From Bacteroidota bacterium (lineage in GTDB: Bacteria > Bacteroidota > Bacteroidia > NS11-12g > UBA955), in contig JAIYAW010000005.1 of assembly GCA_027488835.1 (NCBI GenBank), forward strand, positions 40,307-104,306: 64,000 nucleotides of DNA. The letters are read 5' to 3'. The notes under the pieces were generated by a model. The model saw only the letters and a list, made by a program, of their open reading frames with translations, did not search any database and was not told the DNA's origin. Both the position numbers and the translations under genes were made by a program. This document shows, in pieces, positions 2,963 through 52,180 of the stretch. The first letter of the stretch is position 1; each line of letters opens with the position of its first letter.

Positions 2963-2963
2963 A

Positions 2964-9536: not shown

Positions 9537-10493
9537 ATGAGAAAATTTGAAATATTAGGTAGCAAAGACACACGAAGTGGTTTCGGTGCGGGATTATTAG
9601 AAGCTGGACAAGCCGACGAAAATGTAGTTGCACTTTGTGCCGACTTAACAGGGTCGTTAATGATGGATGCATTCAAAGATGCTTTTCCTACAAGATTTAT
9701 CCAAGCAGGTATTGCCGAAGCAAACATGATGGGTGTAGCTGCAGGATTGGCTATTGGTGGTAAGGTTCCATTTACTGGAACTTTTGCTAACTTTTCAACT
9801 GGTCGTGTGTACGATCAAATTCGTCAAAGCATTGCATATAGCCATACCAATGTGAAGATTGCTGCATCGCATGCGGGTTTAACATTGGGGGAGGATGGTG
9901 CTACACACCAAATTTTGGAAGATATTGGGTTGATGAAAATGTTGCCTGGCATGACTGTTATCAATCCATGCGATTACAATCAAACAAAAGCGGCAACAAT
10001 TGCCATTGCGAAAATGAATGGTCCCGTTTATTTGCGTTTTGGTAGACCAAAATGGCCTGTATTTATTTCAGAAGATACCCCATTTGTAATTGGAAAAGCA
10101 TTAATGCTAAATGAAGGAACTGACGTAAGTATTTTTGCTACAGGTCATTTGGTATGGAAAGCAATTGAAGCGGGTCATATTTTGGCTGAAAAGGGCATTA
10201 GTGCTGAAATTATCAATATTCATACAATAAAACCTCTTGATATTGATGCTGTAATTACATCAGCGAAGAAAACCGGTTGTGTAGTAACTGCAGAAGAGCA
10301 TCAAATGAATGGCGGATTGGGAGATAGTATTGCACAATTGTTGGCCTTGAAAATGCCTACGCCGTTAGAAATGGTGGCGGTGAATGATAGCTTCGGTGAA
10401 AGTGGAACTCCAGATGAATTGTTGGTGAAGTACCACCTCGATAGCCAAGATGTTGCCGATGCAGCCGTTCGCGCTATAGCAAGAAAAATATAA
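9537..10493 (+). CDS. Transketolase, C-terminal (pyrimidine-binding/C-terminal domain) subunit
   Basis: FIQAGIAEANMMGVAAGLAIGGKVPF and HAGLTLGEDGATHQ motifs of the transketolase Pyr and C-terminal domains; 318 aa. Confidence 0.88.
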   Translation: MRKFEILGSKDTRSGFGAGLLEAGQADENVVALCADLTGSLMMDAFKDAFPTRFIQAGIAEANMMGVAAGLAIGGKVPFTGTFANFSTGRVYDQIRQSIAYSHTNVKIAASHAGLTLGEDGATHQILEDIGLMKMLPGMTVINPCDYNQTKAATIAIAKMNGPVYLRFGRPKWPVFISEDTPFVIGKALMLNEGTDVSIFATGHLVWKAIEAGHILAEKGISAEIINIHTIKPLDIDAVITSAKKTGCVVTAEEHQMNGGLGDSIAQLLALKMPTPLEMVAVNDSFGESGTPDELLVKYHLDSQDVADAAVRAIARKI

Positions 10494-10504
10494 CCTATAA
10501 CAAA

Positions 10505-11194
10505 TTAAGCAGTTTTTTGAATGGCCTCTAAAAGGGCCATTTTTTTTGCACGCGATATTTTAATTCTAGTATCATTATTCATAATAACCTCATCAGTACT
10601 GAAAGATTTAACATGGTCAAGGTTTACCGCGTAAGATCGGTGAACCCTTACAAATGTCTCAGGGAAATTATGAATAATGGATTTGATAGTTTTAGAAATT
10701 GTATAGAATTTATTATTGGTATACAAATTTGAATAAGAACCATAGGCTTCAATAAAAACAATATTGTTATATTGTAATTTAGTAATTGACTTATGATCTT
10801 TTATAACAATGTGATTCTTTACGTTTGATTTTTCATCACTTTTTATTTGTTTTTGTATGCGCTCTGAAAAGAAATTAAAATCACATTCAAGGCTGTCTAG
10901 CAACAAGTAATCATAAAAACCTTGTCTTATAGATTCAATTGCGTAGTCGGCGTTTTCTGAAACCATAATCAGATGAATGTTTTTTCTGGTTATTTCTTTC
11001 AAGCGAATTTCAGTTTCAAGAATATTGAAATTCTCTTTATCAACAAAGAGGTATATTTTGTCTGATGACGTGAAATTCTTTTCTCCATTGACTTTATCAA
11101 GGGATTTAATTCTTGCATTTGAAAATTTAGCACAAATTAAGTCGCTAATTTTTTTAGTATTAAATTGGTTATTGAATTGAATTAAAAATATCAT
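10505..11194 (-). CDS. LytTR-family DNA-binding regulator with a degenerate N-terminal receiver-like domain
   Basis: C-terminal LytTR signature (NIVFIEAYGSYSNLYT...FVRVHRSYAVNLDHV). The N-terminal approx 120 aa resemble a REC fold (IYLFVDKE, HLIMVSENAD, GFYDYLLL) but lack the N-terminal acidic pair. Confidence 0.8.
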   Translation of the reverse strand: MIFLIQFNNQFNTKKISDLICAKFSNARIKSLDKVNGEKNFTSSDKIYLFVDKENFNILETEIRLKEITRKNIHLIMVSENADYAIESIRQGFYDYLLLDSLECDFNFFSERIQKQIKSDEKSNVKNHIVIKDHKSITKLQYNNIVFIEAYGSYSNLYTNNKFYTISKTIKSIIHNFPETFVRVHRSYAVNLDHVKSFSTDEVIMNNDTRIKISRAKKMALLEAIQKTA

Positions 11195-11644
11195 CTCCGT
11201 TTTAAATTATTATTTACGTACAATCAAAAAAGCATCGTACTTTTTTGTATGATGTAGAATATCATCTACAAAAATAACCTAATTTTGAATGTAATATTTT
11301 ATAATATTGTAAGATAATTGTTAATTAATGTATTTTTTTCAAGAAATTATATTTCAATAACTTATGCGATTTTTTTTGAGAAATATTGGATTTTGGTACA
11401 AAAAAAATTATAAAATCAAACAATATATAGAAATCGAGGTTCATTTTACATTGTATAAAATTTGTTTCTAATGACTTTCCAAGATATCAATTTAGAATCT
11501 TTTTCTGATTTATTTCGATTACCAAGTACTTTCGAATAATGTGGTACTCCAGATGAAATATTGGTGGAGTACCACTCGGATAGCCAAGAAGTTGCTGATT
11601 TCGCAATCTTTGCTTTTGTTAGAAATGTATAACCTATTACAAAA

Positions 11645-12334
11645 CTAAGCCGTTTTTTGAATGGCCTCTAAAAGAGCCGTTTTCTTTGCGCGCGATATTT
11701 TTATTTTAGTATCATTATTCATAATGACTTCATCCGTGCTGAAAGATTTAACATAGTCAAGATTTACTGCGTAAGAGCGGTGAACCCGAACAAATGTCTC
11801 TGGGAAATTATGAATAATTGATTTGATAGTTTTAGAAATTGTATAGAATTTTTGGTCGGTATATAAGTTTGAATATGAACCATAAGCCTCTATGAAAACA
11901 ATATCGTTAAATTGTAATTTGGTAATTGACTTATGATCTTTAATAATGATGTGATTTTTTACGGTTGATTTTTCATCACTTGTTATTTGTTTTTGTATGC
12001 GATCTGAAAAGAATTTAAAATCATATTCAAGACTGCCTAATAACAGGTAATCATAGAAACCATGTCTTAAGGATTCAATTGCATGATCTGCGTTTTCCGA
12101 AACCATAATTAGATAAATGTTTTTTCTGTTAATACCTTTTAAGTATGTTTCTGGTGAAAGAATATCGAAATTTTTCGTATCAACAAACAGGTAAATTCTA
12201 TCTGTTGATGAAGAATCTTTACCCGCATTGAATTTATCAATAGATTTAATTCTTGCATTTGAAAATTTCGCACAAATTAAGTCGCTAATTTTTTTAGTGT
12301 AAAATAGATTGTCGAATTGAATTAAAAATATCAT
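11645..12334 (-). CDS. LytTR-family regulator, tandem paralogue of 10505-11194
   Basis: About 80% amino-acid identity to the neighbouring LytTR gene. The identical start context gaattgaattaaaaatatcat is shared by both copies. The track ORF is extended to a TTG at 12364; the ATG at 12334 (MIFLIQFD...) corresponds to the start of copy 1. Confidence 0.8.
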   Translation of the reverse strand: MIFLIQFDNLFYTKKISDLICAKFSNARIKSIDKFNAGKDSSSTDRIYLFVDTKNFDILSPETYLKGINRKNIYLIMVSENADHAIESLRHGFYDYLLLGSLEYDFKFFSDRIQKQITSDEKSTVKNHIIIKDHKSITKLQFNDIVFIEAYGSYSNLYTDQKFYTISKTIKSIIHNFPETFVRVHRSYAVNLDYVKSFSTDEVIMNNDTKIKISRAKKTALLEAIQKTA

Positions 12335-12576
12335 TTTCCTTGGTTTTGAATTATTGTTGTTCAAGTCAGCATAGTTAAAATAATTACGGACAAGAATATT
12401 TTCTACAAAAATAATTCACAAGTACAAGTCAAATTTCTTGAAGTTGTTGCATAATTAAATTCGGTACATATTAGATAGAGGCTCGGTAATAAATAATTGA
12501 TAAGTATATTTTTAACATTTTTATTGTTCAGGTATTTCGGATTTTGGAACAAAAAAATGACTAAAACTGAACTGTA

Positions 12577-13788
12577 TTAATTCAGTTTTAAGTTCTGAAA
12601 GTATACATTCGGACTGATTCCCGTTATTTTCTTGAAACTAACGTAATATGTGGTCCGTGAATTGAATCCTGAAAAATTACCAATTGCCTCCATCGTGTAT
12701 TTTTTGTTGCTGTTATCTTTTAACAATTTTATGGAATGATCGATTCGCATTTCACAAATGATATCGGGAAAGGATTTTTTGATGTGGTTATTAAGAATAA
12801 ATGAAATATGATGACTAGGAATTGAAAAATGGTTTGCAGCCATGGCAATTGAAAATTCAGGATTTAAATACAATTGTTTTTCATTTATTTCTGAAATGAT
12901 AGTTTGTGCCAAAATAAACTCTTTGTTATCAACTTCATCGGTATCATTTTTAAATGATTTAAAATTAGGTAGTGATTTTTCATTATCAGCTATGGTTTTA
13001 TAATTGATTTTTGGTAAACCATACAGAAGTAAAGGATTCAATAATATGTATGTTGCTAGTATTATAATAGACAAACCGGTTACAAATAATGGGATTTTTA
13101 AAAATAAATTCGAATGAACAGTAATGGTAGAAATAAAAATTGAATTATAAATTGATGAATATGCAACTGAAACAACAAAAACCGAAATTACAATTAAAAA
13201 TAACTTTAACCATTTTAAAACAAATTGTGATTTAATTTCACTATTGAGTTGTATGCTTCTGATATAGTTTCGCCACGCAAACAATGTATATGATACATAT
13301 AATAGAACCCGCAAAACAAAATTGTATTTTGCTTTCATTAATGTACCTGGATAATTGGCTATTTTTGTATAATCTGTGGATATTGTACTTGCCCAATATT
13401 GCCAGTGTTGAGGTCCTCCCGAATAATAATCCAAATTATCAATAATTGCATAAACAGCCGGAATTAAATGGAGCAAATCGATTTTCGAGAAGTTATAATT
13501 TTCATCTAAATTTATGACTACATAAAAATAGATTGCAGGTTGAACGATATAATAGAAAGGGGCAAAACCCCTTAACAAAAATGGTACGTTACCAATCAAT
13601 CCACTGATTACAAAAACATGTACCAAATGATAATTGATTATGCCCCAAAACATTGCAAACATTAACCATTTGAGTTTTGGATTTCCATTTTTTTCAATTA
13701 AAATTGTTCCACACGCAATAAAGGTTATTAATACAGCAGTAATCAGCATTACTATCACTGAAGTATCCTTAGGAATAACGAAAATCAT
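12577..13788 (-). CDS. Polytopic membrane protein with C-terminal AraC-type HTH DNA-binding domain
   Basis: N-terminal approx 260 aa with about 6-7 hydrophobic helices. The C-terminal approx 100 aa carries a typical AraC/XylS HTH (EKQLYLNPEFSIAMAANHFSIPSHHISFILNNH...GFNSRTTYYVSFKKITG). Confidence 0.8.
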   Translation of the reverse strand: MIFVIPKDTSVIVMLITAVLITFIACGTILIEKNGNPKLKWLMFAMFWGIINYHLVHVFVISGLIGNVPFLLRGFAPFYYIVQPAIYFYVVINLDENYNFSKIDLLHLIPAVYAIIDNLDYYSGGPQHWQYWASTISTDYTKIANYPGTLMKAKYNFVLRVLLYVSYTLFAWRNYIRSIQLNSEIKSQFVLKWLKLFLIVISVFVVSVAYSSIYNSIFISTITVHSNLFLKIPLFVTGLSIIILATYILLNPLLLYGLPKINYKTIADNEKSLPNFKSFKNDTDEVDNKEFILAQTIISEINEKQLYLNPEFSIAMAANHFSIPSHHISFILNNHIKKSFPDIICEMRIDHSIKLLKDNSNKKYTMEAIGNFSGFNSRTTYYVSFKKITGISPNVYFQNLKLN

Positions 13789-13944
13789 CTCAAATATATA
13801 AATTTATAGGGAGTTAAAAATAAGCAAGTATTTTGGTAGTTTGATTTGGTAAATTTTTTTCGAAAATAATGCATTTGCCTTAATTTGCGATTATTCAAAG
13901 ATCACTTTTTTTCAATAAATAAGTAGATAATTTGGAATACGAAT

Positions 13945-14095
13945 TTATTTGGATTTTGTGTTTTGTAGGCATTCACTTTGTGCAATACCCGTTATTATCT
14001 TGAAGCACACATAAAAAAGTTCTTTGATGAGTATTAATTTACCTGGTTATTTGATGATAAAAGCAAATACCCAATATTCATTGTGCCAAAATTGT
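13945..14095 (-). pseudogene. Chimeric remnant of a third membrane-AraC paralogue (3' end fused to a mid-gene segment; approx 650 bp internal deletion)
   Basis: 13945-14035 aligns base-by-base with the 3' end of gene 15155-16366 (15158-15250). 14029-14095 aligns with 15908-15975 of the same gene. The intervening portion is missing and no intact reading frame remains. Confidence 0.45.
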
Positions 14096-14470
14096 AAATG
14101 ACACAGTGAATATGGGCAATGTCTGTGCTGTAATGTAACTAGGTAAAATAACGAGAATTATTTTAAAGAAACATTGATGTGAAATTAAGTCCAGGTTTTA
14201 TTATGTGGCTCCTATCTAAATAATTTCTTTTAACTGTTTAAACTTCATACTAAAGTGAAAAATTCCATATTTTTATCATAACGAAGAAATGGTTTCTGTT
14301 CTAAAAAGCAATTTAAGGAATGTACGGATTTGCAACAAAAATGTCCTAAAATCATAAAAAATAGTTTGTATCGTATTGTTTTTTAATCTTTTAAATTATT
14401 TGTTGTTGCATTTTGATAAATCACACAATTTTCAAAATATGCAGAATCGATTAGAATTTAACTTTGTGAA

Positions 14471-15115
14471 ATGAAAAATTTGGGTGAGATAATTGATGTA
14501 GATATTTTTCTATTGGATGAAGTTTCTTTGTATGAAAATAATTTATGGCAAGAAAATTATAAATTACACCTTGCATTAAACAAGTTTAAATCGTTTAAAA
14601 TTGGAATACCCTTCGATTGCAAAAATAAATTGTTAGGACCAGTGATTCAGTTTATTGATTCAATCAATTTGAATGGTAGTTATTTTGTATATTTCAATAT
14701 TAACAATGAGGAAAATTTATTAGCATTAGTAAATAATTATCACTCAGAATTGACAAATCATATTTTTTACATTTTGCCTGATAAAAAAGTGAAATACTCA
14801 AAACTATCAAAAAATTTTTGGGACATACAATTGTTGGGATTTGAAATTCATATACTAAAATGTGACAAGATAGAAGAATGCAGGTTATCGCCTTCAATTA
14901 TGAATAAATATTGGCGGAAAGGAGCGATAGTTGGTATTGTAGGATTTACAAAGAATCCTATTCGGTTATTTAGAAAAAGAAAATTACAACAGTTGATAAG
15001 ACAAAAAATATTTGATTATTGGATAACTGAAATCATAGATCAAAAAGACGTGACTTATTTAAATGAAATCAAACTAAAAGCAGAATTGCTTAATTTTCGT
15101 GTTTTAAATAAGTAA
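14471..15115 (+). CDS. Hypothetical protein (no recognisable domain)
   Basis: 214-aa ORF, the only plus-strand ORF in the island. It is Lys/Asn-rich and is preceded by approx 680 bp of noncoding AT-rich DNA. Coding status is uncertain. Confidence 0.4.
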   Translation: MKNLGEIIDVDIFLLDEVSLYENNLWQENYKLHLALNKFKSFKIGIPFDCKNKLLGPVIQFIDSINLNGSYFVYFNINNEENLLALVNNYHSELTNHIFYILPDKKVKYSKLSKNFWDIQLLGFEIHILKCDKIEECRLSPSIMNKYWRKGAIVGIVGFTKNPIRLFRKRKLQQLIRQKIFDYWITEIIDQKDVTYLNEIKLKAELLNFRVLNK

Positions 15116-15154
15116 ATTAAATATTAAAATGATCAATACGGCTGATTATTCTTT

Positions 15155-16366
15155 CTATGGATTTTTTATGTTTTGAATGTATTCACTTGGTGTAATACCC
15201 ATTATTTTCTTGAAGCTCACATAAAAAGTAGTTCGTGAATTGAATCCAGAAATATTACCAATTGCCTCCATAGTGTATTTTTTATTTCGATTGTCTTTTA
15301 ATAGTTGAATGGCATGATCAATTCGCATTTCAGAAACGATATCGGGAAATGATTTTTTAATGTGATTGTTAAGAATAAATGAAATATGATGATTTGGTAT
15401 TGAAAAATGTTTCGCAGCCGTATTCAATGAAAAATCCGGATTTAAATACAATTGTTTTTCGTTGATCTCGGAAATAATACTATTGGCCAAAATATTTTCT
15501 TTATTATCACTGTTAGTCATATCATTTTTGAATGATATAAATTTTGATAACGCATTTGAATTGTCAATTATCGTTTTGTAATTGATTCTAGGTAAACCGT
15601 AGAGTAAAATCGGATTAAATAAAATATATCCCGACAGTGCCAAAATAGATAAGCCAATTAAGCTAATTGTAATCAAAACGGAGACATTGGAATTGTCCAT
15701 TATTGTATCAAGATAGTTAAAATTACTTACAGAACTTAAACTAACCGTTACAACAAAAACCGACATGATAATCAAAAATAATCTTAACCATTTTAGAACG
15801 AATTGATCTTTAATTTCTTGATTGTTTTTGACATAATGAAAATAGTATCGCCAAGCGAATAAAGTGTATGAAATCTTTAACAAATCAAGGAAAATAAAAT
15901 GATATTTGGATAGTATTAATTTGCCTGGATATTTGGTCAAGAAAGAAAAATCATTAGATATTGTATTTGCCCAAAATTCCCAATGGTTAGGGCCTCCGCA
16001 ATAAAATCCCCAATTATCTATAACCGACAAGACGAAGGGAATTAAATGCAGTAAATCTTTTTTTGTAAAATTATAGTTTTCATTCAGGGTTACTATAACA
16101 TAAAAATAAATTGCAGGCTGAATTATATAATAATAAGGATACAATCCCCTAATGAAAAATGGGAAATCTTTAATTAACCCCAAGGATATAAAAAGAATTA
16201 CGGAAAAATGAAGACCAATCTCTGTAAATATGATAAAAAGCAGCCACTTCAGTTGTGGATTACAATTTTTTTCAATTAAAATTGCTCCACACGCCAAAAA
16301 TGTAACTAGCACTGCTAAAATAAGCAGTGACTGCACGAAATAGCTTGGTGAAATAAAGAAAATCAT
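15155..16366 (-). CDS. Polytopic membrane protein with C-terminal AraC-type HTH domain (paralogue of 12577-13788)
   Basis: Same length (403 aa) and architecture as 12577-13788. Alignable throughout, including EINEKQLYLNPDFS and FPDI..EMRIDH in the HTH region. Confidence 0.8.
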   Translation of the reverse strand: MIFFISPSYFVQSLLILAVLVTFLACGAILIEKNCNPQLKWLLFIIFTEIGLHFSVILFISLGLIKDFPFFIRGLYPYYYIIQPAIYFYVIVTLNENYNFTKKDLLHLIPFVLSVIDNWGFYCGGPNHWEFWANTISNDFSFLTKYPGKLILSKYHFIFLDLLKISYTLFAWRYYFHYVKNNQEIKDQFVLKWLRLFLIIMSVFVVTVSLSSVSNFNYLDTIMDNSNVSVLITISLIGLSILALSGYILFNPILLYGLPRINYKTIIDNSNALSKFISFKNDMTNSDNKENILANSIISEINEKQLYLNPDFSLNTAAKHFSIPNHHISFILNNHIKKSFPDIVSEMRIDHAIQLLKDNRNKKYTMEAIGNISGFNSRTTFYVSFKKIMGITPSEYIQNIKNP

Positions 16367-16465
16367 ATTTGGTGACTCCTATGCAAAGATATAGGCATAT
16401 TCTTGATTGAATTAAAGGATACGCAAAAAAATCAAATTAATTCTGTTGTACCTTTGCTTAGTTAA

Positions 16466-19811: not shown

Positions 19812-20900
19812 ATGATGCAAAAACTCTTTCTCTACACCTTTGTTTTAATGATGGTTACAATGACTACAAAAATCTTTTCACAAACTAAGCTTCCAACACA
19901 TAATCCCAATCTTCCTTTTATAAGCGCTAAGAAAAATATATGGGCAGGGAATCCGCTTTTAAACGGGAAATATGTAAATATTGAATTTCCGCACACAATT
20001 GGATTTAAAGATGTGATGAAGTGGAAAAGAATGAAAAATCCATATGAGGCATTTAAAAAAACCGATACCACCAAAATTGAAATTTTTGAAGGTGCTGAAA
20101 AAGCGATCACAGATACTTCAGATGGCATATTTTGGTTGGGTCACGCTACTTTCTTGATTCGACTGGCCGGAAAAACATTTATTACAGACCCCGTCTTTGG
20201 AAAGGTATCTGGTTTTTTAGCCAGGAAATCAGTATTGCCAATTAGCCCTGAAAAGTTACCTAAAATTGATTATTTACTCATGTCTCACGATCACCGAGAC
20301 CATTGTGATAAAATGAGCCTTAAATTCCTTTCGAAAAAAAATCCACAAATGAAATATTTTTCAGGTTTGGAAATGGACAAAATATTGGGAGATTTTTTGA
20401 AAGGCAATGAGGGACAAACAGCCGGTTGGTATCAACAGTACACCTTAGAGAATCATGTTTTTAAGTTGTGGTTTCTTCCAACGAGGCACTGGTGCAAAAG
20501 AGGTTTAACCGATGAGAATATTCGTTTGTGGGGTTCTTTTATATTAGAAATTGATGGGTTGGTAATTTATTTTGGCGGTGACAGTGGTTACGGTAGTCAT
20601 TATAAAGAAACTGCTGAATTATTTCCTAAGATTGATATAGCGATTTTGGGGATAGGTGCATTTGAACCAGAATGGTTTATGGAATCCAATCATTCTTCAC
20701 CGGCAAAAGCGTTTCAATCTTTCCAAGATTTAAATGCGAAGTATATGGTTCCTATGCATTATGGCACATTTGATTTGGCCGATGAACCGGTTTGTTTGCC
20801 TGGTCAAATGTTAAATGAACTTGCAATAGAGAAAAAGAAAACCCAACAGGTTTTAATTCCACTGTTGGGTCAAAATATACTTGAAATGTTAAAGAAATAA
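19812..20900 (+). CDS. MBL-fold metallo-hydrolase (NAPE-PLD-like / Zn-dependent hydrolase)
   Basis: LMSHDHRDHCD metal-binding motif and a GGDSGYG stretch; signal peptide. Separated from the mfd stop by 1 bp. Confidence 0.8.
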   Translation: MMQKLFLYTFVLMMVTMTTKIFSQTKLPTHNPNLPFISAKKNIWAGNPLLNGKYVNIEFPHTIGFKDVMKWKRMKNPYEAFKKTDTTKIEIFEGAEKAITDTSDGIFWLGHATFLIRLAGKTFITDPVFGKVSGFLARKSVLPISPEKLPKIDYLLMSHDHRDHCDKMSLKFLSKKNPQMKYFSGLEMDKILGDFLKGNEGQTAGWYQQYTLENHVFKLWFLPTRHWCKRGLTDENIRLWGSFILEIDGLVIYFGGDSGYGSHYKETAELFPKIDIAILGIGAFEPEWFMESNHSSPAKAFQSFQDLNAKYMVPMHYGTFDLADEPVCLPGQMLNELAIEKKKTQQVLIPLLGQNILEMLKK

Positions 20901-20905
20901 GAATC

Positions 20906-22726
20906 TTATTTCTTTATTATTCTCGTCATTTCATTTACATAGAACTGATAGTCCTTTGGTTTTTTACTTTTTGAAATGTTTGTATTTGATTTCGGTTGTT
21001 CTATAACAGGTATGTCATCAACTTTTGCGATAACATTTTTTGGTTGGTCAGCGTATGCCACTTCTTTTTGTTCCGTAGCTACAACCTGTGCAGTTTGTTC
21101 AATAGATTCTTGAGCTTTTATTTCGGTTTTTGTTTCTGATACAGGAGTTTGAATCGTTTCTTTTGGTGCTTCTGTTTTTGACGTTGGTTTTGATTCTAGC
21201 TCTGGATTTTTTGGTGCTTCTTCTAATTGTGGAGTACCTTGAATCATTTCTTCTTCGTTGTTCATTGATTCGCCTAAGAATCCATAAGGGCAACCATTAT
21301 TGCTCAATACACCAAAAACCTTTCGACAACTATCTCTCTTATCAGGCACACCATCATTGTCCCTATCTTTTTGTGTACCAATGTAAATATTTAATCCAAT
21401 TGTACCAGAAATATTGTTGGTATGTGCATATTCGGCAGCACCCCAAGCATTGTTGATGTTAAAGTAAGGCTGAATGACTCCCAAATTCAAACTCATTCCC
21501 ACGGATATTCTATTTTGGGAGTTTTGAAAATCATATTTACAATAGGTAGCCCTAATGTCTAAAATTTCTCCAATTTCTTGATGCACACCGGCGGATACAA
21601 ATGCTTTGTCACCGAGAACTCCAAAACCGTATCCTCCCACCAATTGAATATTGGTTCTTTTTAATGGAAAAAACTCTAGTCCTAATGTATATCTCGGTTT
21701 TAAATAAGTTGTGTAGTTTGAAATAGTTTTGGAGGATCCTTGGAATTTTAAATTTAAGGTATCTCTATATTGTTTTGCAATGTCATTGTTTAAATTGTTT
21801 GTTTGACCGGTATCTAGGCCTTTAAATATCCATTCTCCTTTAAATAATTTATGTTCCGTTGGAAGTACGTCCCATGTAATTTTACCCAAATTTTGAATGC
21901 TTCCTGAAACCCTCAATTTTTCGTTAATTCTATAAACGAAACCGGTACCAAAAGAAAATCCTTGATTTGAAGAAATACTAACTTTGCCCAATTGCGTGTT
22001 TACGGATTTGTTTATGTTTTCACGATAGGCACTATCGCCAATTTGCGACAAATCAATACCCATGAGTGATGCTTGGGCATTGGCTTCAACCGTTGCTCTA
22101 ATTTGATAAATTGAACTTACACCGGTATCGGTTTGCAAGCGCAAATATGTATTGCCTGCTTGTATGTTTGCAATTCCATTTATCAAACCTAGATTTACAC
22201 CAACTGATAATTCATTGGTGATTTGACGTCCATAGGTGATTTCATTTTTAAGGTATGAAGTGAAATTGGTATTTGAAAAATCAATATTGGCTTCTTTCCC
22301 AATAAATGCGCCATTCCCAAAATAAGCCAGACCAAATAAATCCTTGGGTGTATTAAGATTTCCTTCCAGAACAATTGAAGTTGTGTATGTGAAATAAGCT
22401 TTTTTACTGCGAATACCAAAGTGAAATAAATTGGTATTGGAAATAAAATCTAAGCCAATTTGTTTTTGACTTGAATTCATTAAATTTCTAATACTTTGAG
22501 AATCACTTTCAAGTTTGTTAAAAATGGAGTTTAAATTAAATCCATTTAAACCGACGCTATTAAAGGAATTGAACCCAAGGGTAAATTTATGCTGAGGCAA
22601 AAATCCAGGGTTCACAAGGGCAGATTGACTTAAGTGACGGTTATTGTAATCAAAGTTCATTTGTGCTTTTACAAAATTCATTTGAATGATGCAAATTGCT
22701 GCGATTAAAAGATTTTTCATTTTCAT
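20906..22726 (-). CDS. Outer-membrane beta-barrel protein of unknown function with a thrombospondin type 3 repeat and a low-complexity C-terminal tail
   Basis: Signal peptide; approx 430 aa of alternating amphipathic beta-strand-like segments rich in G/N/S/T/Y. The post-signal segment ALVNPGFLP loosely resembles the PorP/SprF N-terminal motif. A DRDNDGVPDKRDSC Ca-binding TSP3 repeat sits near aa 450 with no OmpA domain after it, followed by a P/T/E/K-rich tail. Confidence 0.5.
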   Translation of the reverse strand: MKMKNLLIAAICIIQMNFVKAQMNFDYNNRHLSQSALVNPGFLPQHKFTLGFNSFNSVGLNGFNLNSIFNKLESDSQSIRNLMNSSQKQIGLDFISNTNLFHFGIRSKKAYFTYTTSIVLEGNLNTPKDLFGLAYFGNGAFIGKEANIDFSNTNFTSYLKNEITYGRQITNELSVGVNLGLINGIANIQAGNTYLRLQTDTGVSSIYQIRATVEANAQASLMGIDLSQIGDSAYRENINKSVNTQLGKVSISSNQGFSFGTGFVYRINEKLRVSGSIQNLGKITWDVLPTEHKLFKGEWIFKGLDTGQTNNLNNDIAKQYRDTLNLKFQGSSKTISNYTTYLKPRYTLGLEFFPLKRTNIQLVGGYGFGVLGDKAFVSAGVHQEIGEILDIRATYCKYDFQNSQNRISVGMSLNLGVIQPYFNINNAWGAAEYAHTNNISGTIGLNIYIGTQKDRDNDGVPDKRDSCRKVFGVLSNNGCPYGFLGESMNNEEEMIQGTPQLEEAPKNPELESKPTSKTEAPKETIQTPVSETKTEIKAQESIEQTAQVVATEQKEVAYADQPKNVIAKVDDIPVIEQPKSNTNISKSKKPKDYQFYVNEMTRIIKK

Positions 22727-22746
22727 ATTTTCGTTCTCTTAATCGT

Positions 22747-24822
22747 TTAAATTTTTATTTTCCCTCTAAATGCAATGGAAACGTCGAGTTTACTGTCGGT
22801 ATAAATACTCACGGGAACATTTCCTGAATTGTAGGTATTGAAGTTTGCCCTAATCATAATGTATTTACATTTCTGGTCGTCTAATTTTTTCAATAAACTA
22901 TTTTTCATTAAAAAGGTCGTCATGTTTTCTGAAAAAGTAATTACTCGGCCATTTGCATCTGGTATGCCCGACGTCAAAAGTGTAATGTTCATCAACGAGT
23001 CTATTTTGGCGTATTTGTCGTCTGTAAAAATCAAATCTAAAGATCCATCAAGTGGAAACCCATTATTTGTTTTTATTTTTAATTCTAGGAAATCAAAGTT
23101 TGTTTTACCTTGAAGTGTTTCACCATTTTCTACGGTATCTATGTATGTAAAATCTTTGGCAGTAAACGTCATTGGAATATCTGCATCAAAACCTACTACA
23201 ATTGAACCTGAACTTACAATGTGGTTATTGTAATTTACAAACCCTTTTGGATTCATGATTGCTTTACCAATGATGTTAAAGGTATTTGCCGGCATTCCCA
23301 AACAATTTACAATATTTGAATTTGTTTTATTTATGGAGAATGTTTGAGATTTGATTTGACCTTTTTGTGCAATTGTTGGGAAGGGTAATTGCATGGAATC
23401 GACATTCATTGGCAATGAGTTATTTTTATCGTCTTTAGCCGTTATATCTAATTTTAACAAAATTGGCACACCAAAGGAATTGTCAACGTAAATATTCATA
23501 ATTGGATTTTCCATGCGAATGCCTTTTCCAAGTTTACTTAATTGACTAACGTCCAAATCATTGATGTTGATATCAAAGGTCCTTGTCCCCAAATAACCAT
23601 CTAAGTAATCAAATTTTGCTGTAGAAGCATCAAGCGTCATTTTTATATTGTCTGATGAATCAAAATTCACCATGCCATTTGATGCTTTTATGGATATAGA
23701 TACTTTCGTGCGCAATGTGTTATAGTCTTTTGGTGCAGAAGCACCCAAAAACAAATTGGTATTTGAGAAATTGATATTGGAATTTGTTGTAGACTTAGAA
23801 ACAGCATTGATTGCAAAAGGACTAATTGGATTCCCTGAAATCGTCGCGTCTAGGAAATCAACATTTAAATTAACATCTGTAGGAAATTTAGATTCTATTA
23901 TTACCGGAACATTTGAATTGGTGCTACCAAAAAGTATGTTTCTCAAACGTGCATCCGATGAAGGATCAGATAAATCAAGATCCAAATTTTGTGGTTTGAT
24001 TGTTTGAGAATTAATTACTGCTCTTCCTCCAATACAAATTAAGTTTTTACCAATTGCAGAAATAGTTATGGTACTTAATGTATCAATAATAACTTTCGAA
24101 GGACTTTGGTCAACGTTCGTAACTGGTGTTATAAAGCTTAAATCGTTTGATAATTCAACTCCTTCAAGGTTTATGCTGTCTCTACCCGATGAATTTGCTG
24201 GAATATTAAAGAATTTAGCAGTTCCCAATGTATGTGGTGTAGGCAAATTGTCAATAATGGTAATTTGTATTTCAGATACATTGGTAGGGAAATTATTTTT
24301 TATATCAAACACCAAATATCCTTTTGAAATTTTCAATGCTTCATAACTTGTGCTTTTTGCTATGTTGGTAGGTTTACTATTTGATGTATTGAAGGAAGGA
24401 AAAGTATCTAAAGATCCTTGCTTTATTCTGAGTGCTTGCTGTGTATTGTCTGTAGTGCCAAATAATTCCATCAATGTAACTTCTGATTTTTCATTGATCG
24501 ACGGGAATGTTATTGCACCCATGGACATGTTTATTATATTCTTACCTAAAGAAATATCTTTTAACAAAGAATCACCAGATAATTTGAAAACAGAATCCTG
24601 TTTGAATTTTAGATGTATCAAACCATCTGGATCGTACTTTATGATATTGTCTTGTTTTAAGATTTTACCAGCGGTGATTGATGTACTTGCTAGTGGACTT
24701 AATATTTCTGGATTTACACCATTCTTAAATTTATTGAAATCTAAGTCATTCTTTTTGCACTGAGTGTTGAATAATATCAAACCAATGAAAAGAACATAAT
24801 TTATTTTTTTGAATGATTTCAT
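22747..24822 (-). CDS. Large lipoprotein of unknown function (691 aa)
   Basis: Lipoprotein signal (…LFNTQC-KKN), Asn/Ser/Thr-rich beta-type sequence, no T9SS C-terminal domain. It lies 20 bp upstream of the beta-barrel gene on the same strand, so the two are likely co-transcribed. Confidence 0.55.
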   Translation of the reverse strand: MKSFKKINYVLFIGLILFNTQCKKNDLDFNKFKNGVNPEILSPLASTSITAGKILKQDNIIKYDPDGLIHLKFKQDSVFKLSGDSLLKDISLGKNIINMSMGAITFPSINEKSEVTLMELFGTTDNTQQALRIKQGSLDTFPSFNTSNSKPTNIAKSTSYEALKISKGYLVFDIKNNFPTNVSEIQITIIDNLPTPHTLGTAKFFNIPANSSGRDSINLEGVELSNDLSFITPVTNVDQSPSKVIIDTLSTITISAIGKNLICIGGRAVINSQTIKPQNLDLDLSDPSSDARLRNILFGSTNSNVPVIIESKFPTDVNLNVDFLDATISGNPISPFAINAVSKSTTNSNINFSNTNLFLGASAPKDYNTLRTKVSISIKASNGMVNFDSSDNIKMTLDASTAKFDYLDGYLGTRTFDININDLDVSQLSKLGKGIRMENPIMNIYVDNSFGVPILLKLDITAKDDKNNSLPMNVDSMQLPFPTIAQKGQIKSQTFSINKTNSNIVNCLGMPANTFNIIGKAIMNPKGFVNYNNHIVSSGSIVVGFDADIPMTFTAKDFTYIDTVENGETLQGKTNFDFLELKIKTNNGFPLDGSLDLIFTDDKYAKIDSLMNITLLTSGIPDANGRVITFSENMTTFLMKNSLLKKLDDQKCKYIMIRANFNTYNSGNVPVSIYTDSKLDVSIAFRGKIKI

Positions 24823-24937
24823 GTTGTTTCTTGTTGTGAAAAATATATCTCCCGAAGATTTTATTATTTACAAATTTAAGGTTAACTTGTTTGTATTTAG
24901 TTGATTTTTTTCTATTAAATAAATGTTTAATTGAAAA

Positions 24938-25890: not shown

Positions 25891-26535
25891 ATGGAAAGAA
25901 AAATAGAAAATTTAAAATACGTTTTTCAGGATTTTGAACCTAATTTGATTCATGATATAATCGACAATGCAATTGTAAAGGAAGTTGAATCTGGTGAAAT
26001 TGTGATGCGCACAGGACAACATTTGTCTTCTGCCATGATATTATTAAATGGAACATTGAAAATTTACAGAGAAGGAGATGAGGGAGGAGAGTTTTTTCTT
26101 TATTATTTAAATTCCGGTGAAGCTTGTGCAATGTCGCTTACTTGTTTAAATCACCAAGAAAAAAGCCAAGTTACTGCAATTGCTGTTGATTCAACCACGA
26201 TACTTTTTATCCCAATGGCAAAGGTGAATGAATGGATTCGGCTTTATAGAACTTGGTCAGATTTTGTCATTAATACTTACCGAACACGTTTTGAAGATGC
26301 ATTGCTTGTATTAGATAGCGTTGCATTTAGAGGGATGGATGAGCGCTTGGAATTCTATTTGAAAAAGCAAGTTGAAAATTGTGGTTGTAACGACTTGCAA
26401 ATTAATCATCAAACTATAGCCAACGATTTAAATTCATCGAGGGAGGTTATTTCCCGACTTTTGAAAAAAATGGAACAGCGCGGAATTGTAATCCTACATA
26501 GAAATCACATTGAATTTATAGGACAAGATTGTTAG
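25891..26535 (+). CDS. Crp/Fnr-family transcriptional regulator
   Basis: N-terminal cNMP-binding beta-roll (GEFFLYYLNSGEA) and a C-terminal HTH (SREVISRLLKKMEQRGIV); 214 aa. Confidence 0.85.
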   Translation: MERKIENLKYVFQDFEPNLIHDIIDNAIVKEVESGEIVMRTGQHLSSAMILLNGTLKIYREGDEGGEFFLYYLNSGEACAMSLTCLNHQEKSQVTAIAVDSTTILFIPMAKVNEWIRLYRTWSDFVINTYRTRFEDALLVLDSVAFRGMDERLEFYLKKQVENCGCNDLQINHQTIANDLNSSREVISRLLKKMEQRGIVILHRNHIEFIGQDC

Positions 26536-28835
26536 CGCAATACCATTACATCGCCTTTGTAGACTTGTAACTGTCCCTCAGGACTCAAGAAAGTAGCATG
26601 GTAAACGTAATTTCCAATTGGAACAAGTTCATTGTTGTAATACCCGTCCCAATGTTCATTTGGATCAGTTGATGTGAATAAAATTTGTCCCCATCTGTTA
26701 TAAATCATCAAATTATATTTTGAAATAATATTTCCGGTATTTAGTCCAAATTTGTCATTTAAATCTTTGGTAGAACCCGGCGTGAATGCTGTTGGGAACC
26801 AATAAAGTGGTGATGATTTTACGTAAATATCTTTAGAGAAAGTATCGGCACAACCGTGAATGGTTGATGAAATTAACGTTACTCTGTATTTTCCATAATT
26901 GTCATAGGAGTGGGTTGTGAATTTATTATTGTCGAAATAACCATCTCCAAACTCCCAAGTCCAATTATCATCATTTATGGATAGGTTATTAAAATTTACT
27001 GGATCTGCAGCATGCAATTCGGTAGGCGAATAGCTAAAATTAGCAACAGCTCTTGGGTAAATTGTAATTGCTTTATTTGCAGTGTCAGAGCAGCCAAAAC
27101 TGTTGAAAACTGCCATGGATACATTGAAATTGCCATAATCAGGGAATGCAACATTGTCGTTTTGATTGTAAGACATTCGTCCGTTGCCAAAGTTCCATAA
27201 ATATTTAACAATTATACCACCACCCGGTGTAGATCCATTCGAGAAGCTGATAGGCGTACCTTGGCAATCGTCAGTGAAACTCATTGCAGCATTGGGCATT
27301 GGAGCGATAAATAAAGGTCTTCTCATAGTGTCTTTGCAGCCATTGCTGTTATAAACCACTAAGAAAACATCGGGAACGCCAACGGCACCATAGTAATGAG
27401 TTGCCTTTTTCCCAGTTTCGGTGGGGGAGTTGTCGCCGTAAGACCAAGTTTCAGATTTTAACAAACCGCTTCCTGGCCAACTGAAAGATTCGAATTTTAC
27501 AAAACTATTTTCGCAGGTGTCTGCAACAGTGAAAATAGCTCTTGGTGCTGCCAAAATTTGTATGCGTTTTATTGCTGTATCAGGACAACCACTTTGTGAA
27601 CGAATTACGAGTCGCACATTGAATAATCCGCCTGGCGTATACGTTGTAAATGGGTTTTGTAAACCACTTAGTTTTCCATTTCCAAAATTCCATTGCCACT
27701 GAACTATTTTATCTGATGTAACACCTGAATTATCTGTAAATAAAATACTGTCGTATTCACAATTGCCTTTTACAGAAAATGCAGCTTTCGGATAAGGTGT
27801 TGTGTCGCTTAATGTCCAAATACCAGAAAACCCAATACCTGTGCGATAAGTTACTTCGTTTAAAGGGGTAGAAACGGTTCCATTTACAGGATACAACCAT
27901 TTGTTTACTCCAGTATTGTATTTAATGGCACCCAAATTAGCTTCCGTAATTGTATTATTTGAAGTTATCAAATCTGCGTCGGTATAACCCAATTTAAAAG
28001 TTACATCAGGTTGTTTTGCATATCCATTGTCCTCAACAATCCAAAAACGATCAATCATTCTTTCACTATTTTCACCATCACATTCATTATCTGTATTTTG
28101 AACGCCTGTTGGCATGGGTCGATTGTTAGGAACAGCAACATCGGCTGTGTGGTAAGTAGAAATTGCCACATAGCCTGAATCTTTTGTTTGTATTCCAACA
28201 GAGTTACAAGTAAGTGTGAAATTCAATCTAGTTCCCGCTGCATTCACAAGGGGATAAATAAATATTGGTCCAGTGCTTCCGTCTCTAATATTCCATTGTA
28301 AACGGCTATATCCAAATCCTGGCGAAGTTTCTGTTAGGATTCCACCCGATGAATAAGTGATTGCATTAGGACTGCGGTTGTTAATTATGAGGCTATAAGT
28401 ATTTACATTTAAAATATTGGAATTCAAACGCAATAAACCGGTTCCACCTCCGTTGAAACCACCCCCTACAAGCATATTTTGTTTGAGTGTTACTCCACCT
28501 GTACCTTGTAATGCCAAATCAGGGAAGTGGGTAATTTTTGTACCTCCTATAGAAATATTGTTGCCATAAAGTTCAACTTTTCCAAAATTACTTGTAAAAA
28601 CTACTGTATTTCCTTTGTTTGACCAATTGCCATTTACACGTAAACGGCTATTGGCTGTCATTGAAATAGATGCATCTGAAGTTGCGGCATAATTCCCGAT
28701 AGTGCCATCAACAATGACAAAGGCCCCATCTGTCATTACAATACTTCCACCTGCATGAATTAGTCCTTGTCCCCAAATATTATTTGAAAAAATAAGGGCC
28801 AACATAGCAGGGAATATATTTTTAAGCATTTTCAT
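26532..28835 (-). CDS. T9SS cargo protein: PKD-domain protein with type-B (gliding-motility-associated) C-terminal sorting domain
   Basis: Signal peptide. At least three PKD-like modules (WNFGNG, WTWEFGDG motifs with Cys pairs). C-terminal approx 90 aa (FTPGSTKDLNDKFG...YNRWGQILFTST...WDGYYNN...YVYHATF) match the type B T9SS C-terminal domain. Confidence 0.85.
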   Translation of the reverse strand: MKMLKNIFPAMLALIFSNNIWGQGLIHAGGSIVMTDGAFVIVDGTIGNYAATSDASISMTANSRLRVNGNWSNKGNTVVFTSNFGKVELYGNNISIGGTKITHFPDLALQGTGGVTLKQNMLVGGGFNGGGTGLLRLNSNILNVNTYSLIINNRSPNAITYSSGGILTETSPGFGYSRLQWNIRDGSTGPIFIYPLVNAAGTRLNFTLTCNSVGIQTKDSGYVAISTYHTADVAVPNNRPMPTGVQNTDNECDGENSERMIDRFWIVEDNGYAKQPDVTFKLGYTDADLITSNNTITEANLGAIKYNTGVNKWLYPVNGTVSTPLNEVTYRTGIGFSGIWTLSDTTPYPKAAFSVKGNCEYDSILFTDNSGVTSDKIVQWQWNFGNGKLSGLQNPFTTYTPGGLFNVRLVIRSQSGCPDTAIKRIQILAAPRAIFTVADTCENSFVKFESFSWPGSGLLKSETWSYGDNSPTETGKKATHYYGAVGVPDVFLVVYNSNGCKDTMRRPLFIAPMPNAAMSFTDDCQGTPISFSNGSTPGGGIIVKYLWNFGNGRMSYNQNDNVAFPDYGNFNVSMAVFNSFGCSDTANKAITIYPRAVANFSYSPTELHAADPVNFNNLSINDDNWTWEFGDGYFDNNKFTTHSYDNYGKYRVTLISSTIHGCADTFSKDIYVKSSPLYWFPTAFTPGSTKDLNDKFGLNTGNIISKYNLMIYNRWGQILFTSTDPNEHWDGYYNNELVPIGNYVYHATFLSPEGQLQVYKGDVMVLR

Positions 28836-28865: not shown

Positions 28866-30650
28866 TCATTTCTTAAGTTGTTCTAAGAGTTTTTTGTTTA
28901 ACGCTATTAATTCTTGATTTTGCTTTTTTAATTCTTCAATTTGAGCTTGTTGTTCTTGAATGGCTTTTACAATTGGCACAACAAAATTACCATAACGCAA
29001 TCCATAATAACTTTTCTCGTTTTTAGGCGCATCCACACCGTCGAATTCGTATCCAACTTCTTTTGCAGCTGTTTCAACATCTTGCGCTAAGAATCCGCTT
29101 GTTACAGTTTTTTCGCCATCGTATTTTGTAGTCCAATTCACAGAATCGTGAACGTTCAAGAAAATATTCATTTTATGAATATCCACATTATAAGTAACTG
29201 GTTTTAGCTTCATAATGAAATCTAAGCCTGAAACATTTTCTTTGATGTTTTTCTTAAATCGGGCATCACTTAGGGTTGTCCAACCCACTTGTCCACCTAT
29301 AGAAGTTATCGAGGAATTTCCAATTCGAACCATATCGCTGGCAGTTGCCTTTGACGAATTCCCTATGGCCGTAGTATTGTCCATATTCCCATTTGTTCCC
29401 GCATAATATCCAAGTGCGGAGTTATAATAACCTGTGTAATTGTAATAACCAGAATAATAACCAATTCCAGTATTGTAATATCCTGAAGTATTGTAATATC
29501 CACTTCCATAACCCTCATATGTATTTCCATAACCCAAGCTGTTCGATGCAAGTGAATATGAACCAGTGGCAGTATTGTAATGACCATAAGAGTTACTCCC
29601 AAGTGAATAACAACCATTAGCTGTATTCATAATACCACCTACATTATAAATCATGGAGTAAATACCTGAACAAGTATTGTAAGTTCCTGTAGTATTGTAA
29701 TATAAACTTCTATAGCCAATTCCCACGTTGTAAGAACCAGAAGTATTTGCAGTTAATGGTTCGTAACCAATCCCCACGTTGTATGTGCCTGTTGTATTTT
29801 GATATAATGCACTTGCACCAACGGCACAGTTATAAGATCCATTGTTATTTGCATACATCGCTTGCCATCCCAATGCGGTATTGTAATACCCTCCAGCATT
29901 GCTTTTTAAAGCATCTTTACCCAAAGCAATATTTGAATAGCCACTCGATGCTAAATTTGCTCTGTATCCAATTGAAATATTGTCGTTTGAAGGGTTTAAT
30001 TCTCCATACCAAGTATTGTTTACTCTGAAACGCAAAGCAACATTATCGGTTGTTCCAATAAAGTTATTTGAAGCGCTTAAGCCAGAATTTCCTGTCGTTC
30101 TCCATTGACTGGTTAAATTTACAAATCCACCACCTTTAGATAAAAAGATTGAATCGTTTGAAAGTCTTATTTTTTGAATTTCATTTAAGGTATCGTTATC
30201 TATCAATTTTTGCTTGGCAACGAGGGTAACTTGACCGTAATCATTGATAGTTACTATTGGAAATTCATTTACTGTGCCATATGTACCTTTAATAATTCCA
30301 GTTTTGGCAATATCTACATTTCCTTTACCTTGAACCATGCCCCCAGTTAATCCTGGTCCAAAAGTAATTGAACGCATAACAGGAACCCATTTGCTTTGTT
30401 CATAATACCAAAATCCAGCAGTATCATCTGTTTGGTAAATCATCAAACCATTTGCTGGGGTTGGAATTAGGAATTTCTGAGCCCTGCTTAATCTTGGAAT
30501 CAACATGCCCTTACTCGTTGCACTTACATCCAACATTGCTGAGCCATTAGGCGTTGCGCCTGTTTCATTTATTCCCACATTTTGGGCTTGAAGGAAATGT
30601 GCCGATATTGTAAGGATGAGTAATGTGAATTTATGTAGTTTTTTATGCAT
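28866..30650 (-). CDS. Tail-fiber-domain surface protein with C-terminal peptidase S74 intramolecular-chaperone domain
   Basis: Signal peptide. Central YNT/YNV Gly-rich heptad-like repeats (GTYNVGIGYE, SGSYNVGIGYR, TGTYNTCSGIYS, YYNTGIGYYSGYYNYTGYYN). A C-terminal SDARFKKNI...auto-chaperone signature is followed by a coiled coil (QEQQAQIEELKKQNQEL). Confidence 0.75.
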   Translation of the reverse strand: MHKKLHKFTLLILTISAHFLQAQNVGINETGATPNGSAMLDVSATSKGMLIPRLSRAQKFLIPTPANGLMIYQTDDTAGFWYYEQSKWVPVMRSITFGPGLTGGMVQGKGNVDIAKTGIIKGTYGTVNEFPIVTINDYGQVTLVAKQKLIDNDTLNEIQKIRLSNDSIFLSKGGGFVNLTSQWRTTGNSGLSASNNFIGTTDNVALRFRVNNTWYGELNPSNDNISIGYRANLASSGYSNIALGKDALKSNAGGYYNTALGWQAMYANNNGSYNCAVGASALYQNTTGTYNVGIGYEPLTANTSGSYNVGIGYRSLYYNTTGTYNTCSGIYSMIYNVGGIMNTANGCYSLGSNSYGHYNTATGSYSLASNSLGYGNTYEGYGSGYYNTSGYYNTGIGYYSGYYNYTGYYNSALGYYAGTNGNMDNTTAIGNSSKATASDMVRIGNSSITSIGGQVGWTTLSDARFKKNIKENVSGLDFIMKLKPVTYNVDIHKMNIFLNVHDSVNWTTKYDGEKTVTSGFLAQDVETAAKEVGYEFDGVDAPKNEKSYYGLRYGNFVVPIVKAIQEQQAQIEELKKQNQELIALNKKLLEQLKK

Positions 30651-52113: not shown

Positions 52114-52180
52114 TGTGAATTGATTTAAAAACGATATTTTCGTATTTTTATTTCTCAAATTAATAAAATTTTCTTTCAAT

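Follow-up and report, generated by a model that had tools for sequence, protein, structure and literature searches.

A conserved gene pair in the Bacteroidota

The window analysed here is a stretch of 64,000 nucleotides (nt) from a Bacteroidota bacterium (Bacteroidia; NS11-12g; UBA955; GenBank assembly GCA_027488835.1, contig JAIYAW010000005.1, positions 40,307 to 104,306 of the forward strand), and its subject is a pair of adjacent genes on the minus strand. The first gene (22747..24822) encodes a lipoprotein of 691 amino acids (aa), an all-beta, multi-domain product that belongs to a large family. The second (20906..22726) encodes a 606-aa outer-membrane protein of the Pfam family DUF5723 (PF18990, E 5.2e-42), which is composed of a beta-barrel and a tail that we read as periplasmic. 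The DUF5723 gene starts 20 nt past the lipoprotein stop codon, and the intergenic spacer (22727..22746, minus strand) contains no terminator. A preliminary description of this DNA, made from the letters alone, had called two open reading frames (ORFs) with a 20-bp gap, the upstream one being a lipoprotein gene. Our analysis confirmed both ORFs at exactly these coordinates and the gap at exactly this length, added the minus strand, which had not been stated, and found the expected signal peptide and lipobox cysteine (Cys21). Since homologue searches returned dozens to thousands of relatives for each gene, neither is a chance ORF.

As judged from the sequence, the two genes form a bicistronic operon. 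The 20-nt gap without a terminator is consistent with co-transcription, as is a conserved TAnnTTTG box that precedes the lipoprotein gene only. TAnnTTTG is the −7 promoter consensus of the Bacteroidota, and the candidate box of this type in the window, TAAATTTG (24871..24878, minus strand), begins 56 nt upstream of the lipoprotein ATG. Such a box lies 36 to 64 nt upstream of the orthologous lipoprotein ATG in all seven related loci compared, with 0.09 expected per 130 nt. A scan for intrinsic terminators gave no more than chance and no terminator-like site in 20600-25100; a scan for sigma-70 promoters also gave no more than chance and is uninformative. The surrounding genes have housekeeping functions (mfd, a metallo-beta-lactamase (MBL)-fold hydrolase, cvfB, and a Crp-family regulator). 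The MBL-fold hydrolase gene (19812..20900) is convergent and ends 5 nt from the DUF5723 stop codon, and a terminator-like hairpin was detected for neither gene. The nearest relatives are uncultured freshwater Flavobacteriales-like Bacteroidota. Some of the records that carry it (L004-L006, L009, L011, L012, L014, L018-L020, and L023) are titled 'Chitinophaga pinensis', 'uncultured Rhizobium sp.', or 'uncultured Bifidobacterium sp.'; such off-taxon titles of metagenome-assembled genomes look like mislabelled submissions and not like a real taxonomic spread of the locus.

The pairing of the two genes was examined in both directions. When the search was based on the lipoprotein and restricted to one genome per species, the next gene was a DUF5723 gene in every one of the 27 lipoprotein loci where the DNA continues downstream. 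These 27 loci share wider synteny and are hence not independent. The same gene order, with gaps of 2-100 nt, was found at six further, distant loci in unrelated contexts, which include a Saprospiraceae chromosome, a menaquinone-gene neighbourhood, and an ATP synthase neighbourhood; the lipoproteins encoded there are 19-25 % identical. For the converse test, metagenomes were searched with a DUF5723-only alignment, which yielded 80 loci, 75 of them with upstream DNA. A gene of the lipoprotein family lies directly upstream on the same strand in 74 of these 75 independent loci, as expected of the two-gene outer-membrane module that the preliminary description had proposed. All 60 complete upstream ORFs encode a lipobox cysteine, and the gap is between −4 and +20 nt in 52 of the 60. 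An adjacent, co-oriented, tightly spaced pair was thus recovered across diverse genomes from either side, and the pairing of DUF5723 with this lipoprotein is near-obligate. The pair occurs in freshwater, marine, soil, termite-gut, and human-gut Bacteroidota. We found no description of a lipoprotein partner of DUF5723 in the literature, and a literature search on the pairing of FadL-like barrels with surface lipoproteins in this phylum returned nothing.

The DUF5723 barrel and its C-terminal tail

The match of the 606-aa protein to DUF5723 is nearly full length for the profile (145 bits against a cut-off of 26.8; residues 40-422 correspond to profile positions 1-373 of 376). The 59 close homologues all fall into the same family, and hhalign aligned the barrel to distant DUF5723 members with a probability of 100 % over columns 1-462. 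No hidden Markov model (HMM) match at E<=1 was obtained for the 606-aa protein with PorP_SprF (PF11751, TIGR03519), PorV, Toluene_X, porin, or OmpA (PF00691). The 59 close homologues gave no match to PorP_SprF, porin, or OmpA and no Toluene_X match at E<=0.1; the single trace of PorP_SprF was a sub-threshold match (E 0.0019) in one distant DUF5723 member. The assignments to a plain OmpA or porin and to PorP/SprF were therefore rejected by HMM, and the barrel belongs to DUF5723 with a FadL-like fold. DUF5723 itself is mentioned only in passing in the literature that we searched. For the Porphyromonas gingivalis DUF5723 protein Q7MT24, no functional literature was found in our searches; it adjoins a protein with a type IX secretion system (T9SS) C-terminal domain in a proteomics table, and its gene neighbourhood could not be established.

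An AlphaFold2 model of the barrel, built from the 59-sequence alignment, has predicted local distance difference test (pLDDT) values mostly of 80-94 and about 16 long strands by DSSP. A Brachyspira DUF5723 protein has also been modelled as 16-stranded. In structure comparison, FadL and TodX were the top matches, and BamG and PorV scored slightly lower (20.8 and 20.7). The model has a FadL-like barrel fold with an N-terminal hatch that carries an NPA-type motif. The DUF5723 protein is thus a FadL-superfamily outer-membrane barrel whose hatch keeps an NP(A/G) motif. A signal peptide (residues 1-20, with cleavage between VKA and Q) and the hatch segment (residues 21-44) are encoded at 22595..22726, and the barrel itself (residues 45-450) at 21377..22594, all on the minus strand. 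The hatch segment, NNRHLSQSxLxNPGFLPQ, is the best-conserved part of the protein. Within the clade, Q21, N27, N28, R29, H30, Q33, S34, N38, P39, F41, P43, and Q44 are invariant, and Q33, N38, and P39 remain invariant in distant DUF5723 members that are only about 20 % identical. By its sequence, this conserved N-terminal motif is the counterpart of the NPA motif in the hatch of FadL, a motif that FadL needs for gating (PMC8407342).

The barrel extends to about residue 450, and the tail begins after its last strand. The first element of the tail is one probable OmpA-type thrombospondin type 3 (TSP3) unit, KDRDNDGVPDKRDSCRKVFGVLSNNGCPY (residues 452-480; 21287..21373, minus strand), in which C466 and C478 are invariant; the stretch DRDNDGVPDKRDSC corresponds to residues 453-466. 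This unit has the pattern KDRDxDxVPDKRDSCxKxFGVxSNNGCP, and the motif with both cysteines is present in 119 of the 120 listed homologues. Although Pfam TSP_3 scores the unit at only 16 bits, below the 25-bit cut-off, the family profile aligns it to each of the five tandem repeats in 5wtl_A (whole-sequence E 4e-11), and this TSP3-repeat region was the single meaningful match of the barrel family profile among all PDB sequences. The residue pattern suggests a Ca-binding unit of the OmpA type.

The TSP3 unit is followed by a conserved PYGFLGESMN stretch and then by an acidic, E/K/T/Q/P-rich disordered linker (stretch and linker together residues 481-586; 20969..21286, minus strand). The linker contains 16.5 % E, 11 % K, 10 % T, 9 % Q, and 9 % P and has a net charge of −8. 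The AlphaFold2 model is disordered over residues 467-587 (pLDDT below 50). The linkers of the homologues are likewise acidic and rich in E/T/S/K/A/P, and their length after the GC of the unit varies from 34 to 228 aa. At its C-terminus the protein has a basic patch and a conserved peptide, SKKPKDYQFYVNEMTRIIKK (residues 587-606; 20909..20968, minus strand), which is predicted to be helical; AlphaFold2 places a helix at residues 592-604. This peptide (…MTxIMKK) has the clade consensus (L/M)(T/E)(E/D)(I/L)M(K/N)(K/R/N)-COOH, and its motif is found in no other ORF of the window.

The tail varies between lineages. Most DUF5723 proteins of other lineages end within 10 residues of the barrel, about 60 % being tail-less, and K/E/P-rich tails are present on some of the others. 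One relative, at locus L111 (1098-3347, 750 aa), is composed of DUF5723, five TSP_3 repeats, and an OmpA domain (E 9e-21), so that its tail resembles a 'complete' version of the one that is truncated or replaced in the window protein. The DUF5723 proteins at L099, L105, and L106, from termite-gut metagenomes, have C-termini of 70-130 aa made up of almost perfect EPKVKEPK(Q/P)-type repeats, which recall the Glu-Pro/Lys-Pro periplasm-spanning spacer of TonB. Because the tail of the 606-aa protein follows the last strand of a FadL-like barrel, and because the same position in L111 is occupied by a peptidoglycan-binding module, we infer that it is periplasmic and not surface-exposed. We suggest that it is a variant specific to this lineage, with a flexible tether and a terminal docking peptide in place of the OmpA domain.

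These results refine several points of the preliminary description. Its probable outer-membrane barrel was correct, but the full-length membership of the uncharacterised family DUF5723 and the FadL-superfamily fold had been missed. The ALVNPGFLP motif is indeed present, at residues 35-43, but it is not PorP-like: it belongs to a FadL-type hatch and its NP core is invariant in distant DUF5723 members. The statement that the protein is neither PorP/SprF nor OmpA agrees with the lack of PF11751, TIGR03519, and PF00691 matches at E<=1, and the single TSP3-type unit without the usual OmpA domain was found as described. The P/T/E/K-rich tail is of low complexity as reported; it measures 127 aa after the second cysteine, not 150 aa, and ends in a conserved peptide. 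Finally, a surface-exposed complex had been proposed, which is plausible for the lipoprotein with its export-signal-like N-terminus and probably does not hold for the TSP3 unit and the tail, which follow the last strand and hence should be periplasmic.

The partner lipoprotein

The lipoprotein begins with a signal peptide (residues 1-20), MKSFKKINYVLFIGLILFNTQ, and the lipobox Cys21 (24760..24822, minus strand), which is invariant in three family alignments (A1, A2, and A6). The mature residues +2 to +7, KKNDLD (24742..24759, minus strand), resemble a surface-export signal. Over 212 family members, the mature N-terminus reads C-K-K-(D/N/E)-(D/E), with K at +3 in 68 %, D/E at +4 in 52 %, and D/E at +5 in 45 %. 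These figures come close to those of the experimentally defined lipoprotein export signal of Capnocytophaga canimorsus, QKDDE, which shows 72, 48, and 44 % at the matching positions (PMC5080379). Another criterion for surface lipoproteins is the presence of two acidic residues within six of the cysteine (PMC12578637). The window lipoprotein, with C-K-K-N-D-L-D, conforms to the two-acidic-in-six rule and fails the strict K-(D/E)2 rule. Since its N-terminus resembles an export signal, exposure of the lipoprotein on the cell surface is plausible.

No Pfam or NCBIfam family matched the 691-aa lipoprotein, distant members included, and a profile search found no sequence relative in the PDB. At E<=1e-3, a profile search against 1.84 billion cluster representatives gave 5,260 relatives, of which 2,171 also pass E<=1e-30; those with the best scores are mostly about 690 aa long and match end to end. 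Where source names could be retrieved, all were 'hypothetical protein' from uncultured Bacteroidota, and a search with the distant-member alignment, which returned the same clade only, gave no names for the family either.

The length of the family members varies through the middle of the protein. The window lipoprotein (691 aa) has an N-terminal module, one middle domain, and a C-terminal core. A short form of 500-560 aa (profile positions ~1-100 and ~282-694) lacks the middle beta-sandwich (about 100-282), a giant form of 1,311-1,632 aa carries the same middle domain in six to ten copies, and a mini form of 221 aa has the N-terminal module and the last ~137 residues. In the giants P0202 (1,632 aa; L037:2698-7596), P0204 (1,311 aa), and P0218 (1,487 aa), a beta-sandwich of ~135 aa is present in 6-10 tandem copies, and there are also S/G-rich short repeats near the N-terminus. 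The gene fragment downstream of P0202 in L037 is again DUF5723-like (E 0.0028). The lipoproteins of this family thus combine a conserved N-terminal module with a variable 'stalk', in which the beta-sandwich occurs 0, 1, or up to ~10 times, and a conserved C-terminal core of ~410 aa. This layout would be that of a surface-displayed binding protein, in which the C-terminal core is probably the functional, ligand-binding head.

Interpretation and comparison with known systems

We consider it slightly more likely than not that the operon encodes a beta-barrel–surface-lipoprotein complex that is analogous to BamG–BamH, though not orthologous to it, with an added periplasmic tether in this lineage. 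Such a complex, built on a FadL-superfamily barrel, would be of a known kind. The lipoprotein would be exported, lipidated, and flipped to the cell surface by means of its export-signal-like C-K-K-N-D-L-D. It would then dock on the extracellular side of its cognate barrel through the universally conserved N-terminal module, as BamH does on BamG, and display the conserved C-terminal core on its stalk. On the other side of the membrane, the barrel tail would tether the complex to a periplasmic, peptidoglycan, or inner-membrane partner, in place of the OmpA domain of the L111 type. Our best guess is that the complex captures or adheres to an extracellular substrate.

Several observations weigh against this interpretation. 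In structure, the barrel is slightly closer to the transporters FadL and TodX than to the anchors BamG and PorV, and it keeps the hatch motif that FadL needs for transport. The export signal of the window lipoprotein itself is weak: position +4 is N, and in the SiaC reporter KD by itself did not suffice (PMC5080379). In addition, the DUF5723 gene of L107 is the sole one of the 75 without a lipoprotein partner. Upstream of it stands a gene for a DegP/HtrA-like protease with a lipobox-like signal peptide (the two genes lie at 2185-3651 and 3908-5407).

The likeness to transporters also favours an alternative in which the pair serves the uptake of hydrophobic or amphipathic molecules: the barrel would be a FadL-type channel with lateral passage into the outer membrane or periplasm, and the lipoprotein would capture the substrate as SusD does for SusC. 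FadL and TodX as top structural matches and the retained hatch motif speak for this alternative. However, there is no Toluene_X/FadL sequence match at E<=1, the non-transporting relatives BamG and PorV score nearly as well (20.8 and 20.7), and in many homologues a stalk of 0 to ~10 domains would hold the conserved head at a great distance from the mouth of the channel; we regard uptake as unlikely. We consider it more unlikely still that the barrel is a dedicated translocon that mainly exports the neighbouring lipoprotein to the surface, as Slam does in Neisseria, without holding it permanently. The near-obligate adjacency and close linkage of a single barrel gene and a single lipoprotein gene would fit such a role, as would the export-signal-like N-terminus of the lipoprotein, and Slam substrates were found by the same genomic signature of a barrel gene adjoining a lipoprotein gene. 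Yet no sequence relation of the barrel to Slam/DUF560 was detected, and a resident structural complex would account better than a transient translocon for a periplasmic tether or OmpA domain on the barrel. Moreover, Bacteroidota export hundreds of surface lipoproteins by a general, export-signal-dependent pathway without dedicated barrels (PMC5080379; PMC12578637).

A carrier of the T9SS or gliding machinery, like PorP/SprF, has to be considered as well. The barrel would then anchor a mobile adhesin, and the cysteines of the tail would be disulfide-bonded to a moving track of the GldK/PorK type. The organism has a T9SS, judged by a cargo protein with PKD domains and a type-B CHU_C signal encoded three genes away, and the structure of PorV is close to that of the barrel. 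In SprF, two cysteines of a periplasmic C-tail bond to GldK (PMC12635249), and the tail here has two invariant cysteines; one distant DUF5723 member also gave the sub-threshold PorP_SprF match (E 0.0019). Nevertheless, the partner is a lipoprotein that matches neither Por_Secre_tail nor CHU_C and has no T9SS C-terminal domain, for which reason its status as a T9SS cargo was rejected. PorP_SprF matched neither the 606-aa protein nor any of its 59 close homologues, the cysteine pair is C-x11-C within a canonical TSP3 unit that aligns to OmpA repeats and not the C-x-C of SprF, and a tail is absent from about 60 % of DUF5723 proteins. We therefore hold a T9SS carrier to be very improbable. To a similarly slight degree we credit the idea that the lipoprotein faces the periplasm, either as a plug or accessory of the barrel, like LptE in LptD, or co-expressed without interaction. 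The imperfect export signal of the window lipoprotein (K-K-N-D) would be consistent with it, but the N-terminal composition across the family matches the statistics of surface lipoproteins, the barrel already has its own N-terminal hatch, and stalks of 6-10 domains in proteins of up to 1,632 aa are hard to fit into the periplasm. Adjacency in 74 of 75 loci with very different gene contexts argues for functional coupling.

The beta-barrel–surface-lipoprotein complex that we prefer can be extended to a broader, more tentative proposal, which at present we find rather doubtful: DUF5723 and the lipoprotein family may constitute an unrecognised, phylum-wide class of outer-membrane machines distinct from SusCD, BamGH, and the T9SS carriers. 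In such machines, a conserved head would be displayed on a stalk of evolvable length (0 to ~10 domains), and the barrel would be coupled, mechanically or functionally, to the interior of the cell by interchangeable periplasmic tails: none, a K/E/P spacer, TSP3 with an OmpA domain, or, in the window protein, TSP3 with a disordered linker and a docking peptide. If this were true, the docking peptide would mediate a periplasmic protein-protein interaction of a new type, by which an inner partner is connected to a receptor or adhesin at the surface.

Barrel–surface-lipoprotein complexes serve the Bacteroidota in feeding, secretion, movement, and the construction of the outer membrane, and two 'hypothetical proteins' here become a defined, testable two-component system. 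The partner lipoprotein family, with more than 5,000 sequence clusters, deserves a database family model. The conserved C-terminal peptide of the barrel provides a handle: used as bait, it could reveal to what the complex is linked in the cell interior.

Some other features of the window should be mentioned. The product of the T9SS cargo gene (26532..28835, minus strand) has 767 aa, four PKD domains, and a CHU_C (type-B) secretion signal. After a gene for type-B cargo there usually comes one of the PorP/SprF type; in this case the gene that follows encodes the convergent Crp-family regulator, and the cognate carrier is not adjacent. The cargo gene is adjoined by a gene (28866..30650, minus strand) for a 594-aa Peptidase_S74 protein in a chromosomal context; Peptidase_S74 is the intramolecular chaperone of endosialidase and tail-spike proteins. 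A low-GC island at ~10000..16400 (27-31 % GC, compared with 35-39 % elsewhere) carries genes for two paralogous 403-aa membrane-bound AraC-family regulators (12577..13788 and 15155..16366), which are 63 % identical, and for two LytTR regulators (10505..11194 and 11645..12364). A gene for a 971-aa TPR-repeat protein (49492..52407, minus strand) lies directly upstream of that for a class A penicillin-binding protein (47225..49453, minus strand), and the size and TPR content of its product are reminiscent of the T9SS lipoprotein SprE/PorW. An 830-aa ORF (37074..39566, plus strand) has no Pfam match at E<=1e-5.

Among known systems, Slam of Neisseria shares with the locus described here the genomic coupling of an outer-membrane barrel gene to a surface lipoprotein gene. 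It differs in belonging to another barrel family (DUF560) and another phylum, in being a translocon and not a resident partner, and in having no detectable sequence relation. The FadL orthologues of Treponema pallidum have an NPA or NAA hatch and a periplasmic C-terminal region that is thought to mediate protein-protein contacts (PMC8407342). They are similar to the DUF5723 protein in combining a FadL-like barrel, a hatch motif, and an added C-terminal region. However, the treponemal extensions are helical TPR bundles, whereas the extension here is a TSP3 unit with a disordered region and a peptide, and no cognate lipoprotein gene has been described for them. Compared with FadL of Escherichia coli and TodX of Pseudomonas putida, the barrel shows about 10 % identity and no Toluene_X HMM match, has ~16 strands by DSSP instead of 14, has an obligate lipoprotein partner, and in this lineage bears a C-terminal tail.

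The post-barrel unit D-x-D-x-D-G-x-x-D-x-x-D-x-C-x(11)-G-C-P aligns to the five repeats of the OmpA-family protein 5wtl from Capnocytophaga gingivalis. Compared with OmpA-family/TSP3 proteins, however, there is a single unit here and, in place of the OmpA peptidoglycan-binding domain, an acidic disordered linker and a conserved peptide; the barrel is large and FadL-like, whereas theirs is the small OmpA barrel. Surface proteins are also carried by PorV and PorP/SprF, which are barrels of the BamG kind. They differ from the DUF5723 protein, which has no HMM match to either and whose lipoprotein partner is without a T9SS C-terminal domain. Where SprF has a C-x-C tail, there is a TSP3 unit with a linker and a C-terminal peptide here.

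The closest characterised analogue of the DUF5723-lipoprotein pair is BamG–BamH, which belongs to the BAM complex of the Bacteroidota. BamG, a barrel of the FadL family, holds the surface lipoprotein BamH by means of extended strands on its extracellular side, with the lipidated N-tail of the latter in a groove of the barrel (PMC12611786). Bt1785/Bt1786 is a paralogous pair, and barrel–lipoprotein complexes have been called a hallmark of the phylum (PMC12578637); from the consecutive locus numbers, the Bt1785 and Bt1786 genes would be adjacent. Orthology of the pair in the window with BamG/BamH was rejected, as both family profiles miss the chains of 9n2d, 9hj3, and 9hjm in a search of all PDB sequences at E<=10. 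In Pfam, BamG is a Toluene_X protein and the barrel of the window a DUF5723 protein. Features that we did not find described are the obligate pairing of two unstudied families, the lipoprotein with a variable stalk, and the tail of TSP3 unit, linker, and docking peptide. Compared with BamG–BamH, the lipoprotein here is a beta-sandwich chain with a variable stalk, and the barrel in this lineage has a long tail that is probably periplasmic.

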